From Escherichia phage HY03, in the sequence record NC_031047.1: DNA of 64,000 bases; one strand, written 5' to 3'. Below, piece after piece: positions 5,409-64,000 of the stretch. The first letter of the stretch is position 1; each line of letters starts with the position of its first letter. The position numbers were made by a program, and so were the translations under genes. Below the pieces are notes generated by a model. It was not told the origin of the DNA. It did not search any database and was given only the letters and a program-made list of their open reading frames with translations.

Positions 5409-6083
5409 TTAATTTATTAGACTTCTTAAACGAGCAGAAGTCATAAATGGAAATTTTTCTAAAGTTGGCTTTCGCCAATATCTTGGATGACAAGTTGATT
5501 TAAAATCAAGAACAATTTTCTTTGCTTCATCAATAGTGTTAACTCCAAAGTTATCTAACATTATTTTCTTTTCTTTTTCCCACCGTTTATTAGCTAAAGC
5601 AGATTGAAGCTTTTTGTTTTTAAATGTGTCATTTTTTCTAGAATGAGTTGTTCCTTGTGTCGGACTCCATCCTCTTCCTAAAATAAATCCCTCAGGAATT
5701 ATATCTCCATCATGTAATTTTATACATCTTTTACCATTATTATAATATTTTCGTCCAGTTTGTGTATTTGAAATATTATTTGCATGTTTTCTTTTTAACC
5801 AACCATAAACTTTATTATTTCTCCTAACATATTTAGTTGAAACCGTCATTTTTATGGCTGCATAAGATAATTTTAAAGAATTTGGGTGTATTTTTACTAA
5901 TAGCTGATGTGCAACATAATGCTCTTCTGGAGTTAAATCAACCAAGTTAGAAGCATCATTACTACCGCCTAAACATTTCGGAATAATATGATGTCTTTCT
6001 TTATATCCAGTAAGGGCTCTATTGCGAGCCCTATCAATTAGTGAATTATAAATTTTTTCATAATTCATCGTACATTGCTCCAA
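5409..6083 (-). CDS. HNH homing endonuclease (Mob-type)
   Basis: 224 aa; HNH motif [29 protein letters not shown]; inserted between genes 3 and 2; N-terminal domain paralogous to ORF 44571..45263. Confidence 0.7.
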
Positions 6084-54636: not shown

Positions 54637-55281
54637 TTATCCTTGAACGAACTTGTAAGGCATGTTTGCAATATCTATGCAAGACGCAATAATTCCAAGA
54701 GATGATTCTACTTTCTGTTTAACATTTGATGAAACAAATGATGCAAAGTCAACTCTGTCTTCTATTTCAATATCACCTGTCATTGCAACTACTTCACCAG
54801 TTTCCATTAGACGGTCACCGTCATAAATTACTGATTCGGTGAGTTCTTCCGTAGTCATAACTTCAGCTTGAATGAGTTTTGTATTATTAAATGTTGTTCC
54901 GTCATTATTAGAAGCATCAGTTATTTTATTAACTTTGACCATCAATCCACGTGGTAGAATAACTTCAGCTTCTGTTGCTATTCCGAGACTTCCTGGATAT
55001 ACAACATTAACTTTATGAGCTCCATCAATTGCCCATCCTATTTGAACTTTAACGTATTCAGGATTTTCTTTATACGCTCTTATTTCGTTTGGATTAATAG
55101 TTATTCCTTCTTCATTTTTATCAACTGTCAATTCATTACGAGCTTCTGGTTCTAAAAGACCGATACCAGCATGTGTAATTCCAAAACGTCCAAAAATGAT
55201 AGGAGTTAAAGAAGTAGATACAAAATTTCTGAAATAGAACACTTTATTTTTAACTAATGCTTCGTATATAGGAGCAGTCAA
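54637..55281 (-). CDS. ADP-ribosyltransferase-like protein, apparently N-terminally truncated (Alt/Mod-like)
   Basis: 214-aa ORF from a TTG start; STS motif (FVSTSLTP) and E-x-E (TEAEV) about 90 aa later, but no upstream Arg-motif region; in-frame stop 5 codons upstream. Confidence 0.4.
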   Translation of the reverse strand: MTAPIYEALVKNKVFYFRNFVSTSLTPIIFGRFGITHAGIGLLEPEARNELTVDKNEEGITINPNEIRAYKENPEYVKVQIGWAIDGAHKVNVVYPGSLGIATEAEVILPRGLMVKVNKITDASNNDGTTFNNTKLIQAEVMTTEELTESVIYDGDRLMETGEVVAMTGDIEIEDRVDFASFVSSNVKQKVESSLGIIASCIDIANMPYKFVQG

Positions 55282-55282
55282 T

Positions 55283-55633
55283 ATGAAAGGTAATGTTTAT
55301 TTAGTAGTTCATGATTTAACATTCTATTTTAATCATAATGATACTGTTATTTCTGAACGTGTAATTAATTTGCTTTATCAGCATGCAGATTATGTTTATG
55401 TCGAAAACGAATATGGTCATTGGCAATTTCTCAAAAATCGTTCATTTGGTTTAGATGGTTACGAATATTTTGATCGTAAAGACCTTTTAGATACAATTCC
55501 GTTATCTACACAATATCAAAATCATAAGTCTTTACATAAATGCCGGCTAATTCGAAATGCTGAATCCGCGTATGAAGCAATTGATTTATGGCGTAAACGC
55601 CGTGAACAGATTGATGCTTTAAAAGAATATTAA
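55283..55633 (+). CDS. hypothetical protein (116 aa)
   Basis: ORF with Shine-Dalgarno GGAG before ATG; begins at the synteny breakpoint. Confidence 0.5.
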   Translation: MKGNVYLVVHDLTFYFNHNDTVISERVINLLYQHADYVYVENEYGHWQFLKNRSFGLDGYEYFDRKDLLDTIPLSTQYQNHKSLHKCRLIRNAESAYEAIDLWRKRREQIDALKEY

Positions 55634-55639
55634 GAAACC

Positions 55640-55995
55640 GGGTCGCTACCGGTAAGTCGTCGGACTGATGTTCCCTGGAGTATAGTTTCCTCCCACAGTT
55701 TTACTGTGTTCTGGCTCTTTACTATTACAGCAGAAACGGCGCACCGAATTATCGATTCGAGGAAATATCTTTGCCATAAGCCGAGTAGCGTTTTTGACGG
55801 AACGTTCGGATATGGTCGAGATATGGCCTTTTAAAAATATTGAGTAGCGTCAACTACTTAATAACCGGGTTCAAATCCCGGCGTTTCGTACAAACACTTG
55901 CCTTAGCAGGTGGAACCCCGACAAGGTTGCCGCAAGGCTTAGCCCTGACCGAAAGGTTGGGGCTTTTTAGTTTGAATCACTCAGAGAATGCTGTT
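55640..55995 (+). ncRNA. candidate structured small-RNA locus
   Basis: About 400 bp with no ORF of 60 aa or more; tRNA-like T-arm CCGGG-TTCAAAT-CCCGG (55864-55880); terminal hairpin CCCTGACC-GAAA-GGTTGGGG plus T-run (55951-55976). Confidence 0.25.
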
Positions 55996-56043
55996 ACGGA
56001 TAATAAATAATTAATAACCAATAAATTATTTCAAGGATTTTAA

Positions 56044-56607
56044 ATGAAAACCTATGCCGAATTTTTAACTGAAGCAGCAAAATTACCATCTGAAGCAGAT
56101 CTTACTAAAGTATTCTTCCACTTGGACCCAAAAGACCGGGGCGATTTTCTTAAGTGGAAAGCTAAAGCTATTGAAATGTATAACATCGATAACAGTTCTT
56201 TTACGATGAGCCAAGAAAATAGTTTCAATAAAGCATTTTTCAAAATTTCTAAGAAATTGGCATCTGGCGCTCAGGTTTCTAAATCTGCATTAGCTACTCC
56301 TGAACGTGCACCTGTTAAAATTTCTAAGAATATGTTTGACACTAAAAAATATGTCAATGCTTTGAATAAAGCTCTTGATGCATTGGATGATGCAAAGAAG
56401 GCAGCCCGCGATCTTCAAGACGTGTATACCGATTTTGATCGTAAAACTAAAGGTTCTATTTCAAATAGCGAACGCAATAGTGTAAGTGTTTATTCTGATA
56501 GCCTTGATGTTCTTGGCGATGCATATACTGAAATTAAAAATCGTATTAACACCGCATCTAAGCTAAAAGCTGCTGCAGAAGCTATAATAACTAAACTAGG
56601 TAAATAA
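56044..56607 (+). CDS. internal-protein-like capsid-targeted protein
   Basis: 187 aa; N-terminal MKTYAEFLTE|A matches the T4 capsid targeting sequence cleaved by gp21. Confidence 0.6.
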   Translation: MKTYAEFLTEAAKLPSEADLTKVFFHLDPKDRGDFLKWKAKAIEMYNIDNSSFTMSQENSFNKAFFKISKKLASGAQVSKSALATPERAPVKISKNMFDTKKYVNALNKALDALDDAKKAARDLQDVYTDFDRKTKGSISNSERNSVSVYSDSLDVLGDAYTEIKNRINTASKLKAAAEAIITKLGK

Positions 56608-56615
56608 TTTTAAAT

Positions 56616-56640
56616 CCCTATCTAAATGATAGGGCTTTTT
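56616..56640 (+). terminator. rho-independent terminator
   Basis: Hairpin CCCTATC-TAAATG-ATAGGG followed by CTTTTT. Confidence 0.55.
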
Positions 56641-56762
56641 GGTATCTAGGCCTTTCCGGGCCTCTCTAGGCATCATTTAGTTTATATCCTTTATAATATA
56701 TTATCCTACCTTTTAATTGCCCCTCCCCGCCCTAAAATTCCCTAAAAATTTTTCACAAAACT

Positions 56763-56792
56763 GTTTACATCCCTGTTCTTCTATGGTACTAT
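56763..56792 (+). promoter_or_regulatory. T4 early-type promoter
   Basis: -35 GTTTAC, 18-bp spacer, -10 TACTAT, upstream of ORF 56836. Confidence 0.55.
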
Positions 56793-56835
56793 ATCAATAT
56801 CAACTACTGATACAGAAAACAACTTGGAGAATAAA

Positions 56836-57099
56836 ATGGATAATTACGGTGAACTGTTCAACTTCTTTATGAAATGTGTTTCAGAAGATTTCGGTCGTAC
56901 AGTGAATGATATTAAAGTTATCGGTCCTGATCATCCGATGTTTGAAACTTACGCAGTAATGGGTAATGAAGATGGTCAGTGGTATACTGTAAAGGTTGTG
57001 ATTAACATGTTCACTGCTGAAGGTTATGTTAAACTGTCTTCTAAAGTTTACCATGATAACGATGAAATCGCAGAAGAATATTTCAATAATATGAAATAA
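56836..57099 (+). CDS. hypothetical protein
   Basis: ORF 56824..57099; ATG at 56836 preceded by GGAGA. Confidence 0.5.
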   Translation: MDNYGELFNFFMKCVSEDFGRTVNDIKVIGPDHPMFETYAVMGNEDGQWYTVKVVINMFTAEGYVKLSSKVYHDNDEIAEEYFNNMK

Positions 57100-57167
57100 T
57101 TGTGTACAAACACCAAGGACGGTGTTATTATAGACTTATCAAAACAAATACAGAAACGGAGAAATAA

Positions 57168-57332
57168 ATGACTACTTTAATTATTTGGTTTGACGAAAAT
57201 GAAGAAACATACTGCGTGAACATTGGCGAAAGCCCAATGCCAGAATTTGAATCTTCGGATAAAAACTCGGTTGTATCTTGGGCTGAAGGTTATAAAGCAG
57301 CAAAAGGCGATGTTGAAATAGTTTACAAATAA
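57168..57332 (+). CDS. small hypothetical protein (54 aa)
   Basis: Below the 60-aa cutoff of the ORF track; ATG preceded by ACGGAGAAATAA; fills an otherwise empty 270-bp gap. Confidence 0.4.
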   Translation: MTTLIIWFDENEETYCVNIGESPMPEFESSDKNSVVSWAEGYKAAKGDVEIVYK

Positions 57333-57375
57333 TACTCTTATGGATTTTAAATCTTAATTAACCTAAGGAAATACT

Positions 57376-57969
57376 ATGAACACACTGAAGAAAATTGTTG
57401 AGTTTATTCGCACTAAACTTGGTTCTGCTATGGCTAAAAATTTATCCGTTGAAGAACAGTATACTGCTGCGGCAGCAAAACTACTTGATAAGATTAAAGA
57501 TCTAAAAACTGCTTCTGTTAAATCTATTAATGAAGAAAAGCGTATTCGTGAACTTATTGTCGAAAAGAATAAGCAGGCCGAATCAAAAGAGCGTGAAATT
57601 CGCAAGCTTCTTTCTGAAGGTCAAGATGTAACAATGCATGCTAAACTTGGTTTGCTATATCGTCGAACAGCTGAACAGTTGACTACTAAAGCTGATGGTT
57701 ATGCTGAAATGCGAATTGAAATCGCCAAGAAAGTAGTTGAGTTAGATGATGCTCGCCAAGAACTTGCAGTTAAATTGGAATATATCCGTGAAACTCGTGC
57801 AGCAAATGCCCTTGGAATTAGTACTGCTGATGATGTAGTTGAAATTGCAGCGCTGACTAAGGTTGATATTGAAGATACTCTTGCTCGAGTTGAAACCTTT
57901 AATGGTAATATTTCTGGGGTTGAAACTACCTCTGCCGATGTTCAGGAATACATTAATTCTCTGAAATAA
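57376..57969 (+). CDS. hypothetical coiled-coil protein (197 aa)
   Basis: Lys/Glu-rich helical sequence; hairpin GGGGCTTAGGCCCC downstream. Confidence 0.5.
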
Positions 57970-58010
57970 TGATAAGGGGCTTAGGCCCCTATTACTTGGA
58001 GTAAATAGGA

Positions 58011-58619
58011 ATGAAAATGCAAAGTGATTTCAATTCAATGTTTGAAGAGTTCCAAAGACAGGTTGATGTTCCAGACCAATTGCTAAATGCTCTTAAACGC
58101 ATGGCAGAAGGACGTAATTATTATTGGGGTTCTTCATATGAAACAGACGAAAGCCTTTCTGGAAGATTTTCCAGAGGTAAAAAGTCTTTAATACGTCCTG
58201 GAATACTTATTAACAGTATTGAATCAATTTATTCATTGACATGCGATTTTGATGTTGAATTTACTGATTTCATTTCTCCTGAATGGACAGTTTGTTATTT
58301 AAACGACGATTTTGATTATCTCGGTGTTTATAGTTTAAGTGACGCATGGTTTAAACGTAACTTACAAAAGTCAAATTTATTCTATATTGATACTACAGTA
58401 AAATTTCAGGGAAAGAAATATTTCTTTACTCTTATAGTTGATTCTGAAACGAAGCATGAAAATAAACGTATTCTTAGTAAAAGAAATATCTTGAATATTG
58501 TTGATGATCTTTTTGATAAATTAGTGGAAAATCCTAATTTTGAAAGTGATTTATTACTAGAAAAATTTGTTAAGGAATGTAGAGAATATGTCAAAACCAT
58601 CACTATACCTTCCAAGTAA
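58011..58619 (+). CDS. hypothetical protein (202 aa)
   Basis: First of four consecutive ORFs sharing a C-terminal F-x-x-E-C-R-K/E motif. Confidence 0.5.
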   Translation: MKMQSDFNSMFEEFQRQVDVPDQLLNALKRMAEGRNYYWGSSYETDESLSGRFSRGKKSLIRPGILINSIESIYSLTCDFDVEFTDFISPEWTVCYLNDDFDYLGVYSLSDAWFKRNLQKSNLFYIDTTVKFQGKKYFFTLIVDSETKHENKRILSKRNILNIVDDLFDKLVENPNFESDLLLEKFVKECREYVKTITIPSK

Positions 58620-58980
58620 ACCGTTGAAGTATGAATTAAAGCGTCAGATAATTTCTACTGATGTATTAATAGGTCCTGTTATACTTATATCATTTGTAAT
58701 TCTATTGATTATTGGAGGTGTTTTAGATGTTATGACTGATATTGATTCTGGCGAAATACTTGTGTTAATGCTAATTCTTCCATTAATAGTTCCATTTTTA
58801 TTAGTACCTATAAATTGGGTAGGATACTGGTATCAAGGAAGGCATTATCGTAAACGTGTACGTGATTGGAAAGCACAGTGTAAAAAGATTAAAAAGGAAC
58901 ACCAGCTTAAACTTGCTGCGTATGAATTTGATGAAATTATGAAATTTGTTAAGGAATCACGATGCAAAAGCCAAAACTAA
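58588..58980 (+). CDS. small membrane protein (two predicted TM helices)
   Basis: ORF 58567..58980; probable start MSKPSLY with RBS; hydrophobic stretches VILISFVILLIIGGVL and ILVLMLILPLIVPFLLVPI. Confidence 0.5.
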   Translation: MSKPSLYLPSKPLKYELKRQIISTDVLIGPVILISFVILLIIGGVLDVMTDIDSGEILVLMLILPLIVPFLLVPINWVGYWYQGRHYRKRVRDWKAQCKKIKKEHQLKLAAYEFDEIMKFVKESRCKSQN

Positions 58981-59324
58981 ATAAAGTCAAATATTCGCTT
59001 CCTGAGTCATTTTTAATTTTTGCTGTGGCGTTGGCTGCAGCTCTTGCAGGTAGTATTTTTGGATTGTTAATTGACTGTCTTATTTTAAACATCGACGACA
59101 CAGTAAATATAACAGAAGTTTGGAGTGAGCTTTGTTATACTAAAATTATTTCATTGTTTTCATTCTTTGGTACAATGTTATATTTTCATTATGATAATTT
59201 TAAAATAAATTGGCAAAGAAAAAAGGATTACAAAATACAATTAAAAGAATATAACAACTACGTGTCTTATATTGAAAAAGAATCAATGGAAGAGTTTGTG
59301 AGTGATTGTAGGAAAATCAAATGA
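58962..59324 (+). CDS. small membrane protein
   Basis: 120 aa; hydrophobic N-terminal segments; C-terminal ...EEFVSDCRKIK. Confidence 0.5.
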   Translation: MQKPKLNKVKYSLPESFLIFAVALAAALAGSIFGLLIDCLILNIDDTVNITEVWSELCYTKIISLFSFFGTMLYFHYDNFKINWQRKKDYKIQLKEYNNYVSYIEKESMEEFVSDCRKIK

Positions 59325-59809
59325 TTTTAAAAACTCGCTGGTATGATTTAGATGATGGGGATGATGGCATTTCAGTTGATAGAGTTGATTGGAATGGTTG
59401 TTCCGAAGATACAAAGAAACGATTAATTAGGGAGTTTAGAATGGGATATCAAGCAGCTAAACCATTTACTGTAACAGATGATAAATTCGTGTGTATTCAA
59501 AATGGTCGCGCTAAGTTAACGAATGCCGATTGGTTCACAGATAAGAAGGTTATTCTGTGGTATATCATTAGTCTTCCTATATCATCGTTCGTATTTTACT
59601 TTTTTATAAAAAATCCAATGGACAGAATAGGAGATTGGGTTCTTTTAACTATACTTGTTAATATTTTTACAGCAGCAGTATTATCAGGAATATGGCGTAT
59701 GTTCATTGAAATGCCATGGCGTTTACGCAGACAGCAAAAGATTTTTGATGAAAAGAAATATGCTCAAAATTTAAATAACTTTATCACTGAATGCAGGAAA
59801 TTAAAATGA
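59321..59809 (+). CDS. small membrane protein
   Basis: 162 aa; two hydrophobic segments; C-terminal ...NFITECRKLK. Confidence 0.5.
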   Translation: MILKTRWYDLDDGDDGISVDRVDWNGCSEDTKKRLIREFRMGYQAAKPFTVTDDKFVCIQNGRAKLTNADWFTDKKVILWYIISLPISSFVFYFFIKNPMDRIGDWVLLTILVNIFTAAVLSGIWRMFIEMPWRLRRQQKIFDEKKYAQNLNNFITECRKLK

Positions 59810-60246
59810 AAACATTATCAGCTGGTATTATCTTCATGACAGAAGATAAAGATTTATTTATGGGTCGGGTTACTGGTTCTCGTAAGCCTGGAATGATGGC
59901 ACATCGCTGGGATATTCCAAAGGGACGTGTAGAAAGTTCTGATTTGAATGCACTGGAAGCTGCAAAAAGAGAATGCTTAGAAGAGACCGGTTTTAGCAAT
60001 TATAATCCAGACCTTCTAGAAGACCTAGGTGTATTTAAATATTCTAGTAATAAAGACTTACAGTTATTTTATTATACGATTCCAGTAGAGCATGAGATGT
60101 TTAGAAATTGCCATTGTGAGTCTTATTTTGAAAATAAAGATGGTGTTATGATTCCAGAGATGGACGCTTTTGCTCTTATTCCTCGTACTCAGTGGCAATA
60201 TGTGATGGGTCCTTCACTTTACCGAATAATGAACAACCTCTTTTAA
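59791..60246 (+). CDS. nudE: Nudix hydrolase NudE (e.1)
   Basis: 151 aa; Nudix box GRVESSDLNALEAAKRECLEETGF; directly upstream of lysozyme gene. Confidence 0.8.
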   Translation: MQEIKMKTLSAGIIFMTEDKDLFMGRVTGSRKPGMMAHRWDIPKGRVESSDLNALEAAKRECLEETGFSNYNPDLLEDLGVFKYSSNKDLQLFYYTIPVEHEMFRNCHCESYFENKDGVMIPEMDAFALIPRTQWQYVMGPSLYRIMNNLF

Positions 60247-60777
<531 letters not shown>

Positions 60778-60781
60778 AGCT

Positions 60782-60811
60782 GTTTACTTTCTCTTAGAAT
60801 TGTGATAGTAT
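60782..60811 (+). promoter_or_regulatory. T4 early-type promoter
   Basis: -35 GTTTAC, 18-bp spacer, -10 TAGTAT, upstream of ORF 60871. Confidence 0.5.
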
Positions 60812-60870
60812 ATTCACAGTTACTTGAATAGACAATTACCAATTAAAATATTTACATTTAAAGGAAACAC

Positions 60871-61344
60871 ATGAAAACATATCAAGAATTTATTACTGAA
60901 GCAGCTATTAATTCTCAAATTATTGCTGAATCTTTTACTGATCTTTTGAAATTTAAAAAAGGACAGAAAATCACTGCTGTATTGGATGATGGTACAGAAG
61001 TTGAGATGGATGTACAGGGATATAATTATGCAGTAGATGGAAAACTGTATAATAAATCTCATGCTAAATTTGATTCATTTGACGACTTTGTTAATACAGT
61101 TGAAGATGAAAAAACTCGTCGATCCATTGCAACTGGTGATGCTAAGGTTCTTATGGCACATGGTCATGAACGCATTCGCGCTAAACAGAATAAAATGGGT
61201 GAAGATAATTTTGCATTAGTTGGTTATCAATCTGGTAAGCAAACTTATGGCTATCAGCGTACTGCTACCATGTATAATAAAAATGGTAAAATCGCTTTCG
61301 TGAATAGTAAAGGTTCTATTCAGTACGTTAAATCGTTCAAATAA
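60871..61344 (+). CDS. internal protein (ipII/ipIII position) with capsid targeting sequence
   Basis: 157 aa; N-terminal MKTYQEFITE|A is the T4 internal-protein targeting signal; lies beside gene e. Confidence 0.65.
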   Translation: MKTYQEFITEAAINSQIIAESFTDLLKFKKGQKITAVLDDGTEVEMDVQGYNYAVDGKLYNKSHAKFDSFDDFVNTVEDEKTRRSIATGDAKVLMAHGHERIRAKQNKMGEDNFALVGYQSGKQTYGYQRTATMYNKNGKIAFVNSKGSIQYVKSFK

Positions 61345-61485
61345 TATGGGAACAACCTGGACCTCATGATTCTGTGAGGGATTCCCGCCAACCTGTAATA
61401 AGGTCGAGCCCAAGTGCGGTAATGGGTAAATACAGAAATGGACAATTCATGCGCCATGGAATGGCCCAAACCTAGAGAGAACAAA

Positions 61486-62025
61486 ATGAGAACATTTTTA
61501 ACTGGTCCTTATCTATCCCTGATGAATGCTTTTACACACCATTCTGATGCTAGAGTAGAAGAAATTTGTAAAAACGATTATATCCCGCCATTTGAAGACT
61601 TACTTAAGCAGTATTGCACACTTCGACTAGATGGTGGACGTCAATCCGGTAAATCAACTGCAGTAACTAATTTTGCCGCTAATTGGTTGTATGACGGTGG
61701 AACAGTTATTGTTCTTTCTAATACTTCAGCTTACGCTAAAATTTCTGCAAATAGCATCAAAAAGGAATTTTTGCGTTATTCTAATGATGATATACGTTTT
61801 CGTTTATTTACTGATTCTGTGCGCAGTTTTATCGGTAATAAAGGAAGCAAGTTCAGAGGTTTAAAGCTTTCGCGAATTTTGTATATAATTGATGAGCCTG
61901 TCAAATCTCCTGATATGGATAAGATTTATAGTGTCCATATTGACACTGTACACTGCTGCTGTAATATTAAATGTTGTATTGGTGGTATTACTCGTCCACA
62001 GTTTTTCGTAATCGGAATGCAATGA
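61486..62025 (+). CDS. hypothetical P-loop NTPase-like protein
   Basis: ORF 61438..62025; Walker A-like GGRQSGKST and Walker B-like ILYIIDEP; start probably MRTFLT. Confidence 0.45.
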   Translation: MRTFLTGPYLSLMNAFTHHSDARVEEICKNDYIPPFEDLLKQYCTLRLDGGRQSGKSTAVTNFAANWLYDGGTVIVLSNTSAYAKISANSIKKEFLRYSNDDIRFRLFTDSVRSFIGNKGSKFRGLKLSRILYIIDEPVKSPDMDKIYSVHIDTVHCCCNIKCCIGGITRPQFFVIGMQ

Positions 62026-62351
62026 TGACAGACACTCAGCTTTTCGAATATCTTTATTTTTCGCCAAAAACTATTAAAAATAAATTAGTGAATCATTTTG
62101 AAATTTTGGCAAATAACAACGTCTTGAGCGAATTTTATCCTAAGCAATACAAATTACAAAAAGGCGTATTCAAAGGATGCAGAGTTTTGTGTACTGCTCC
62201 TAATGCACGGCTAATGAATAAAATTCCATATTTTACCATGGAATTTATTGATGGGCCTTTTAAAGGACTAATCACCCAAAGTTTAATGGCATATGATTCT
62301 GAGCCATTTTTAATTAAAGAACAATCTTGGATAAATTTATTTTCTAATTGA
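62022..62351 (+). CDS. hypothetical protein
   Basis: ORF 61971..62351; likely start at ATGATG overlapping the upstream stop (ATGA). Confidence 0.45.
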
Positions 62352-62358
62352 GGTTTAT

Positions 62359-62721
62359 ATGAAAGCATATCAAATTCTTGAAGGCACACATAAAGGTACT
62401 ATTTATTTTGAAGATGGTATTCAAGCACGAATTATCGTTTCTAAAACCTTTAAAGAGGACTCTTTTGTAGACCCAGAAATTTTCTACGGTTTGCATGCCC
62501 GTGAAATTGAAATTGAGCAACAGCCTACAGTTAAAATTGAAGGTGGTCAACACCTGAACGTTAACGTTCTGCGTCGTGAAACTCTGGAAGATGCAGTTAA
62601 GCATCCGGAAAAATATCCGCAGCTGACCATCCGTGTATCCGGTTATGCAGTTCGCTTTAACTCTCTGACTCCGGAACAGCAGCGCGACGTTATCGCTCGT
62701 ACCTTCACCGAGAGTTTGTAA
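62359..62721 (+). CDS. autonomous glycyl-radical cofactor (GrcA/YfiD-like)
   Basis: 120 aa; C-terminal ~60 aa [60 protein letters not shown] matches E. coli GrcA with RVSGY glycyl-radical motif; host-like codon usage in the 3' half. Confidence 0.75.
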
Positions 62722-62942
62722 TGGCAAAGATAATTATTGAAGGTTCTGAAGATGTGCTAAATGCTTTCGCCGAATGGTTTAGTAATTCAGGCGAACAGCA
62801 ATTTAACGAAGCATGGAACATGGGTGATATTGATGGAATTTATCCCACGACAGAAATTTCTGTTCAAGGATATGGAATTCATGAGCCTATTCGTTTAGTT
62901 GAATATGATTTAGGTACTGGTGAGGAAGTAAAATATGATTGA
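62721..62942 (+). CDS. hypothetical small acidic protein (73 aa)
   Basis: Tightly packed early ORF. Confidence 0.45.
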   Translation: MAKIIIEGSEDVLNAFAEWFSNSGEQQFNEAWNMGDIDGIYPTTEISVQGYGIHEPIRLVEYDLGTGEEVKYD

Positions 62943-63201
62943 AGATATTAAGGGTTATAAGCCACATACTGAAGAGAAAATCGGTAAAGTGAATGCTATT
63001 AAAGACGCTGAAGTTCGTTTAGGACTTATCTTTGATGCTTTATACGATGAATTCTGGGAAGCACTAGATAATTGTGAAGACTGTGAATTCGCGAAGAATT
63101 ATGCTGAAAGCCTCGATCAGTTAACTATTGCTAAAACGAAACTCAAAGAAGCCAGTATGTGGGCTTGCCGTGCTGTGTTCCAACCAGAGGAAAAATACTA
63201 A
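62935..63201 (+). CDS. hypothetical small protein (88 aa)
   Basis: Tightly packed early ORF, two ORFs upstream of regB (vs.4-like position). Confidence 0.45.
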
Positions 63202-63479
63202 TGGCTCAATTAAGCGCAGGGTTTGGTTATGAGTATTATACTGCCCCTCGTCGTGTATCTGTTGCTCCTAAGAAAATTCAAAGTCTTGATGACTTCCAGG
63301 AAGTAGTTCGTAACGCTTTCCAGGACTATGCACGTTATCTTAAAGAAGATTCACAGGACTGTCTCGAAGAAGATGAAATTGCTTACTATGAGCAGCGTCT
63401 TGAACAGCTCAAAAATCTACATGAGGTTCGTGCAGAAGTTTCAAAGTCTATGAATAAATTGGTCAGATTTAAAGAATAA
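63159..63479 (+). CDS. hypothetical small protein (106 aa)
   Basis: Early ORF adjacent to regB. Confidence 0.45.
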
Positions 63480-63481
63480 CT

Positions 63482-63511
63482 GTTTACTTTTCCTCTTGAC
63501 TGTGGTATAAT
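63482..63511 (+). promoter_or_regulatory. T4 early-type promoter upstream of regB
   Basis: -35 GTTTAC, 18-bp spacer, -10 TATAAT, then GAGGAG RBS. Confidence 0.6.
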
Positions 63512-63538
63512 TTTTCTATCAGTTAAGAGGAGAATAAC

Positions 63539-64000
63539 ATGACTATCAACACAGAAGTTTTTATTCGTCGAAATAAGCTCCGTCGTCACTTTGAGTCGGA
63601 GTTTCGTCAAATTAACAATGAGATTCGTGAGGCATCAAAAGCAGCAGGGGTCTCATCGTTTCATCTAAAATATTCTCAACATCTTCTTGATCGCGCAATT
63701 CAACGGGAGATTGATGAGACATACGTTTTTGAATTATTCCATAAAATAAAAGACCATGTTTTAGAAGTTAATGAATTCCTGAGTATGCCTCCGCGTCCTG
63801 ACATTGACGAGGATTTTATTGATGGGGTTGAATATCGTCCTGGACGTTTAGAAATCACAGATGGAAATCTTTGGCTTGGATTTACAGTTTGTAAACCTAA
63901 CGAGAAGTTCAAAAACCCGTCACTTCAATGTAGGATGGCAATTATCAACAGTCGTCGTTTACCAGGAAAGGCTTCTAAAGCAGTAATTAAAACTCAATGA
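63539..64000 (+). CDS. regB: RegB endoribonuclease
   Basis: 153 aa as T4 RegB (MTINTEVFIRRNKLRR...); identification from memory. Confidence 0.6.
   Translation: MTINTEVFIRRNKLRRHFESEFRQINNEIREASKAAGVSSFHLKYSQHLLDRAIQREIDETYVFELFHKIKDHVLEVNEFLSMPPRPDIDEDFIDGVEYRPGRLEITDGNLWLGFTVCKPNEKFKNPSLQCRMAIINSRRLPGKASKAVIKTQ

Follow-up and report, generated by a model that had tools for sequence, protein, structure and literature searches.

The closest described relatives of the gene studied here are E. coli grcA (yfiD) and the T4 gene for the protein Y06I. YfiD is reported to take a glycyl radical from the activase of pyruvate formate-lyase (PFL) and to reconstitute PFL that has been cleaved by oxygen (PMC8683613). 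Residues 1-60 of YfiD, which are disordered, are needed for activation and for binding to cleaved PFL; residues 61-127 are structured, and this domain inserts into the active site (PMC8683613). T4 Y06I is reported to act in the same way, taking the radical from PFL activase and restoring O2-cleaved PFL (Wagner et al. 2001, as cited in PMC8683613). In a comparative study of 2006, the phage gene, vs.6, is entered just as a conserved ORF that contains a Gly_radical domain (PMC1524935). Neither the gene nor its function is new, and the product is routinely annotated as GrcA. In our literature search we found no paper on nucleotide identity between vs.6 and grcA, on gene conversion at this locus or on the parallel case in Klebsiella phages that is described below; an earlier description is possible. 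The pattern of gene conversion and host tracking is possibly an undescribed detail of this known gene.

We analysed a window of 64 kb (the whole stretch of DNA, positions 1-64000) from a Tequatrovirus-type T4-like phage. Its nearest relatives are JEP6, RB32 and RB33. We found that vs.6 in this window is a mosaic: the 5' half is of the phage lineage and most of the 3' half is identical in nucleotide sequence to E. coli grcA. The features of the locus are as follows.

62349-62351: TGA stop codon of vs.7, overlapped by the GAGG of vs.6
62350..62353, + strand: SD-like GAGG, 5 nt before the vs.6 ATG, read from the sequence
62359..62721, + strand: vs.6 ORF, 120 aa, orthologue of T4 Y06I, a GrcA-type autonomous glycyl-radical cofactor
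62359..62535, + strand: 5' half of vs.6 (codons 1-59), phage-lineage and AT-rich, a diverged homologue of the GrcA N-terminal half
62537..62705, + strand: host-identical core, 169 nt equal to nt 200-368 of E. coli grcA, encoding the structured glycyl-radical domain
62641..62643, + strand: GGT codon of Gly95 in the RVSGY motif, the predicted radical site, corresponding to GrcA Gly102 by homology with GrcA and PFL Gly734 (PMC8683613)
62706..62721, + strand: tail of vs.6 (last five codons and stop), differing from E. coli grcA at 5 synonymous, phage-type sites
62721..62942, + strand: vs.5, whose ATG overlaps the vs.6 stop (TAATG); from here on E. coli has no homology

The gene stands in the conserved order nudE, e, Ip4, vs.8, vs.7, vs.6, vs.5, vs.4, vs.3, regB. 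Its DNA is 99.4-99.7% identical to RB32 vs.6 and to the gene labelled "autonomous glycyl radical cofactor" in many further records. Position in the cluster, together with 99.4% nucleotide identity to RB32, places it in the T4 vs.6 orthologous group (Straboviridae). Colinearity of the window with JEP6 holds over 61424-64000 and, short gaps excepted, over 55280-64000 as well. The genes vs.7, vs.6 and vs.5 are tightly packed, as would be expected if vs.8-vs.7-vs.6-vs.5 formed one polycistronic unit, which is how RB32 is annotated. Two elements in the tail of vs.6 serve the start of vs.5: the GAG at 62710-62712 and the TAATG overlap. A scan for promoters and terminators around vs.6 gave nothing better than shuffled sequence. 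We took an antisense ORF at 62344-62727 to be a by-product of the stop-free coding strand. The intergenic region between Ip4 and vs.8 (61330-61480) has a G+C content of 0.47, and the whole window has 0.36; we found no tRNA in this region and no evident function for it.

An earlier note on this DNA had named Y06I as the T4 homologue, and the T4 gene is indeed documented. It lies between vs.7 and vs.5, encodes 120 aa, is 97.8% identical in nucleotide sequence to vs.6 of the window and has the E. coli-identical core. The two proteins differ at one residue, which is P in T4 strain 147 and Q54 in the window. T4 keeps 2 phage-type synonymous sites in the tail, whereas the window keeps 5 in the last five codons. 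That is, the host-type tract ends 9 nt earlier in the window than in T4.

The protein encoded by vs.6 has the domain expected of GrcA. Pfam PF01228 (Gly_radical) matched residues 60-101 with 67 bits (E 2.5e-18; gathering threshold 22.2 bits). The top solved structure was E. coli GrcA (6OWR, E 9e-42) and the second was pyruvate formate-lyase, residues 697-759 (E 5e-26). The last ~60 residues had been said to match GrcA, including RVSGY. We found that 60 of 60 are identical to GrcA 68-127, with RVSGY included and with Gly95 in the place of GrcA Gly102. After GrcA, this domain is nearest to PflB. With its 120 aa, vs.6 encodes a small stand-alone protein that has a mimic of the PFL C-terminus and the RVSGY glycine, as GrcA/YfiD proteins do. 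The full protein scored 154.9 bits with the NCBIfam GrcA equivalog model TIGR04365, below the cut-off of 170 bits; the alignment joined vs.6 residues 20-120 to profile positions 25-126, and the score falls short because the N-terminal half has diverged. Similarity to NrdD was absent from the NCBIfam and structure-database searches of the vs.6 protein at the thresholds used.

The vs.6 protein and E. coli GrcA are both stand-alone proteins of ~14 kDa that share the C-terminal 60 residues, the 169 nt of DNA and, by homology, the N-terminal half. In contrast to the identical C-terminal part, the N-terminal half of the phage protein is ~29% identical to that of the host and is 7 residues shorter. 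The surroundings also differ: vs.6 lies in a cluster of phage early genes and E. coli grcA lies between ung and eamB.

We compared the window with 5,426 complete E. coli genomes. The core of vs.6 was the sole megablast match of the 64 kb. Positions 62537-62721 are 97.3% identical to nt 200-384 of E. coli grcA in all of these genomes, and positions 62537-62705 match the majority E. coli allele at 169 of 169 nt. This allele is matched at 99% or better in 5,156 of 5,432 E. coli records. There are five differences from grcA, all of them synonymous and all in the last five codons (62706, 62709, 62712, 62715 and 62716). Nucleotide similarity to grcA collapses 5' of 62537. Identity to the host gene is thus much higher in the 3' part than in the rest of the ORF, as the earlier note had expected of a host-derived module. 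The start of the module, which had been placed at about 62530, is in that region; the position was 7 nt off, and the true edge is 62536/62537.

The composition of the gene changes at the same place. Codons 1-59 have a GC3 of 0.22 and the core block one of 0.44; the other genes of the window average 0.229 +/- 0.062. The GC3 of the block was reached by 9 of 3,061 57-codon windows, and the best eight of those 9 are in capsid gene 23 and in a probably spurious antisense ORF. All five leucine codons of the block are CTG (7% elsewhere), and all three proline codons are CCG (14% elsewhere). These values agree with the claim that E. coli-style codons are used in the 3' half, compared with the AT-rich 5' half and neighbouring genes.

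Synonymous sites in the core distinguish E. coli from its relatives. Neither the window nor T4 has a synonymous difference from E. coli in this segment (0/42.8 sites). In the same segment, another Escherichia species differs from E. coli by 2 synonymous changes, Citrobacter by 14, K. pneumoniae by 18 (and 3 non-synonymous) and Salmonella by ~25 (and ~3.5 non-synonymous). In the phages RB16 and leE, the identical 60 residues are encoded by DNA that departs from E. coli at ~28 synonymous positions (pS 0.66, dS ~1.6). Among hosts, the two halves of grcA have comparable dS, indicating that the E. coli gene is native and that the phage is the recipient. Judging from these sequence comparisons, the 3' half of vs.6 is host-derived, from E. 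coli grcA, as had been proposed.

The earlier note had described this module as spliced onto a phage leader. Our results do not agree with that part of the proposal. With an HMM made from 67 distinct bacterial GrcA N-terminal halves, the N-terminal half of vs.6 scored 17.4 bits; none of 2,000 composition-matched shuffles reached this score, and the maximum was 10.5. An hhalign comparison of phage and bacterial N-half profiles gave a probability of 95.5% (E 1.6e-8) over 59 columns, end to end, with 29% identity. GrcA alignments made with BLASTP and HMMER run back to vs.6 residue 22. With the NCBIfam GrcA model, the C-terminal half alone scored 133.2 bits, so that the N-terminal half adds ~22 bits to the score of the full protein. 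An NCBIfam scan with the N-terminal half alone gave no match; the homology was shown by the dedicated HMM with its shuffles and by hhalign. The supposed leader is a homologue of the N-terminal half of GrcA.

Phage records with a match to vs.6 numbered ~750 by megablast and 1,505 when distant matches were counted. The two-part architecture is also found in more distant phages and extends across many T4-like genera: RB16 and Cronobacter phage leE (both Pseudotevenvirus), the Slopekvirus phiKp_13, RB49, Aeromonas phage 44RR, T5-like phages (Epseptimavirus) and the Serratia jumbo phage BF. These share the strongly conserved radical domain with the vs.6 proteins described above. In RB16, leE and phiKp_13, the 3' block and E. 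coli grcA disagree at 29-34 of 183 nt, mostly at synonymous sites (dS vs E. coli ~1.5-1.6 for RB16 and phiKp_13). In the remaining distant phages, 128-136 of 183 nt are identical to E. coli grcA. We looked for a near-identical donor of the blocks of RB16, leE, phiKp_13, RB49, the T5-like phages and BF among 80 listed grcA genes (enterobacterial and Pasteurellaceae, from a genome listing that left out K. pneumoniae and other Escherichia species) and found none; the best matches were 135-154 of 183 nt. The diverged blocks of RB16, leE and phiKp_13 indicate no recent patch from the hosts sampled. Together with the homology of the N-terminal half, the old blocks of the distant phages indicate that the whole of vs.6 is an old phage copy of grcA that predates the patch. 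The domain has dN ~0 even where the phage DNA has diverged, and dN of the N-terminal half is 0.2-0.4 between phage genera. For a test of host tracking in 44RR, the Aeromonas locus that matched turned out to be the end of pflB and not grcA. The homologue of vs.6 in Klebsiella phage CPRSA has a length of 365 nt, compared with 363, and is annotated as two ORFs. The split is due to a frameshift close to where the conserved block begins, either a pseudogene or a sequencing error.

Replacement of the block does not appear to be limited to phages of E. coli. In the Klebsiella phages Shark and RCIP0102, the block is 94.8% identical to K. pneumoniae grcA, taken from chromosome-like records in a plasmid collection, and 86.9% identical to E. 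coli grcA. In the core, dS to K. pneumoniae is 0.18 and dS to E. coli is 0.56, and the left edge is as in the E. coli phages. These two phages have ~15 Klebsiella-specific synonymous variants and the signature LLDAVEH in common with K. pneumoniae. The match to the Klebsiella donor is just 94.8%, so either the event is older or the true donor is unsampled. Among the Klebsiella records, CP125156.1, NZ_CP093490.1 and LR134122.1 are chromosome-sized or chromosome-derived and are filed as plasmids, and the record of K. aerogenes NCTC10006 has a grcA copy with a frameshift.

We also compared the window with the Mosigvirus phiC120. Identity is 68% in the flanking genes, 89% in the 5' half of vs.6, 98.8% in the core and 75% in the tail. 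Between Tequatrovirus and Mosigvirus, dS falls from 0.48 in the 5' half to 0.048 in the core (Fisher p = 0.001). We considered whether the core variants of Mosigvirus are alternative E. coli alleles; the best match in 5,426 genomes was 98.2%. These variants are absent from E. coli and therefore look like mutations that arose after transfer rather than signs of different donors. The core of Nami (Tequatrovirus ecnp1) differs from E. coli grcA at 11 of 169 nt and is about as diverged as its flanks, indicating that homogenisation is not universal; in this it stands apart from the other Tequatroviruses. The Nami core has the amino-acid changes N66H and I90S; an unsampled donor, lost homogenisation or sequence errors may be the cause.

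The two edges of the block behave differently. The left edge was identical in all 11 E. coli-phage sequences that were aligned in detail, and the match to grcA begins at nt 200 in ~640 phage records (nt 205 in EcNP1). This uniformity could reflect one founding event that spread by recombination between phages. The left edge is the end of nucleotide homology, with a possible anchor of ~10 uninformative bases. With so short an anchor, the founding event may have needed microhomology and not classical homologous recombination. In contrast, at the right edge, six positions of the tail (62706-62718) show at least six mixtures of host-type and phage-type bases across E. coli phages (we compared the haplotypes of the window, T4, OES_C-2, sb2, RB51/JE01 and Mosigvirus). 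The mixed sites differ between phages, which indicates that the host-type tract has different right ends. These nucleotide patterns suggest that the block of vs.6 has been replaced more than once.

T4-like phages recombine freely with one another. In addition, T4 can copy short stretches of homologous resident DNA into its genome through its recombination system, a process known as marker rescue or patch recombination. By analogy, a similar process could explain the mosaic. The starting point would be an old, full-length phage copy of grcA, which is still recognisable in the diverged N-terminal half. During infection, chromosomal E. coli grcA would have overwritten the conserved 3' block by homologous recombination, that is, by patch gene conversion. 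The exchange would begin in a block of ~80-85% similarity and extend to the limits of homology. Once 169 nt were perfectly identical, further exchange with the host would be easier, and the block could become locked to the host allele. The last codons would often remain phage-type because homology runs out there; the GAG and the TAATG for vs.5 also lie in this stretch. The proposed mechanism resembles marker rescue in that short segments of resident DNA are copied into the phage. It differs in that the donor is the host chromosome, the homology is initially imperfect and there is non-homologous sequence on both sides.

Several other histories could produce a gene of this kind. The block might have been captured once, in the ancestor of Tequatrovirus and Mosigvirus, and then have moved by recombination between phages only, with the host gene not involved again. 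The left edge common to all E. coli-phage records sampled, the absence of the Mosigvirus core variants from E. coli and the ease of recombination among T4-like phages are as this history would have them. However, the cores of T4 and the window have zero differences from the majority E. coli allele next to flanking phage DNA that is 3-32% diverged, the tails occur in at least six combinations of host and phage type, and a separate, host-specific replacement is found in Klebsiella phages. We consider a single capture unlikely. It is more difficult still to accept a de novo fusion of a host C-terminal glycyl-radical module to an unrelated phage leader. The junction at 62536/62537 is sharp, with no nucleotide similarity upstream, and is near the disordered/structured boundary of YfiD; the missing NCBIfam match for the N-terminal half alone would also be expected of an unrelated leader. 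In contrast, the similarity of that half to bacterial GrcA N-terminal halves is significant over its whole length, its inclusion raises the score of the GrcA model, and distant phages join the same N-terminal half to old, diverged C-terminal blocks, so that the architecture is older than the patch. Based on these results, such a fusion is quite improbable.

The near-identity to grcA might instead come from selection on codons or nucleotides (convergence), or from strict vertical conservation. The gene is highly expressed and codon-biased in the host, and the domain is under very strong purifying selection, as seen in its dN. However, RB16 and leE use different codons for these 60 residues. At the pS of RB16, the chance of 0 differences at ~43 synonymous sites is ~1e-20, and codon selection cannot account for the 169-nt identity; in addition, the rest of the phage uses AT-rich codons. 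We give this explanation almost no weight. The same holds for a transfer from phage to E. coli, and for host contamination or an assembly artefact, for which we found nothing specific in favour. E. coli grcA is similarly diverged from that of Citrobacter, Salmonella and Klebsiella in both halves, its block falls inside the enterobacterial series and the codon usage of the block is E. coli-like. An artefact would have to account for a block that is in frame and is present in ~640 independent phage genomes, T4 included. Patch gene conversion from the host is the explanation that we prefer. It may also be, and we put this forward tentatively, as something short of an even chance, that vs.6 is a hot spot of recombination between phage and host. 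In that case the radical module would be overwritten repeatedly by the grcA of the current host (E. coli for Tequatrovirus and Mosigvirus, Klebsiella for JD18-like phages), and the N-terminal half and last codons would stay phage-specific.

The function of vs.6 can be proposed by analogy with T4 Y06I and YfiD. Oxygen would cleave PflB at its radical glycine. The C-terminal domain of the ~14-kDa vs.6 protein would imitate the PFL C-terminus, the host activase PflA would put a new glycyl radical on Gly95, and the protein would dock into cleaved PflB and restore activity. The benefit to the phage may be that the supply of acetyl-CoA, ATP and formate continues under microaerobic conditions, as in the gut, after host expression has been shut off. 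The boundary of the patch (vs.6 residue 60; GrcA residue 66/67) is close to the boundary between the disordered and structured parts of YfiD. The domain that would have to fit PflB and PflA of the host keeps the host's protein sequence, even in phages with diverged DNA. The notion of a GrcA-type spare part, already present in the earlier note, is consistent with a C-terminal domain identical to that of GrcA. Taking function and mosaic origin jointly, vs.6 is probably a GrcA-type spare part encoded by an old phage gene that was patched by host DNA.

It is also conceivable, but rather unlikely, that the protein has a different or additional target: it could repair a further glycyl-radical enzyme, TdcE or the anaerobic ribonucleotide reductase NrdD of the phage, or it could titrate PflA. 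A role in nucleotide metabolism was the subject of speculation in the 2006 comparative paper (PMC1524935). The N-terminal half evolves fast and is unlike that of the host, and the corresponding part of YfiD binds PFL; divergence here could shift the preference for a partner. E. coli tdcE aligns to the phage 3' block with 77.7% nucleotide identity (with Klebsiella phage Shark as the query). Against another target, the C-terminal domain is identical to GrcA and otherwise nearest to PflB, T4 Y06I is reported to reconstitute cleaved PFL (in the work of Wagner et al. as cited above), and similarity to NrdD was absent from all searches at the thresholds used. PFL is the target that these results favour.

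If host DNA patched the gene as proposed, vs.6 would be a clean natural case of gene conversion from the host chromosome to a lytic phage that degrades host DNA. Sharp edges, a right end that varies between lineages and a parallel replacement of Klebsiella type mark this case. The gene would separate a part in which an exact match to the host is required, the radical domain, from a part that is free to diverge, the disordered N-terminal half with its role in binding. The block is a possible marker of host history. If the radical module is in fact overwritten repeatedly, the block would be a molecular record of recent hosts, and the locus would be a natural instance of a virus gene and its cellular counterpart evolving in concert.

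Elsewhere in the window we noted two further features:

7-1291, - strand: T4-type tRNA cluster of seven (Arg-tct, Met/Ile-cat, Thr, Ser, Pro, Gly, Leu)
5409-6083, - strand: 224-aa ORF with an HNH-like motif

At 55279/55280 the window loses colinearity with its relatives. The part from 1 to ~55279 comprises tRNA-Arg, the tRNA cluster, late genes as far as gp54 and an alt-like ORF that is truncated (54637-55281, - strand). The part from 55280 to 64000 restarts 9 nt from the same point of the genome, beside tRNA-Arg, and runs in the opposite direction. The junction was spanned by 0 of 753 related phage records. It is either an artefact of the assembly or record or a real inversion of ~55 kb; the neighbourhood of vs.6 is unaffected. 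As for the 224-aa ORF, a segment of ~5412-6079 is absent at this place in JEP6. This ORF is probably a mobile homing-endonuclease insertion adjoining the gene for the DNA end protector.
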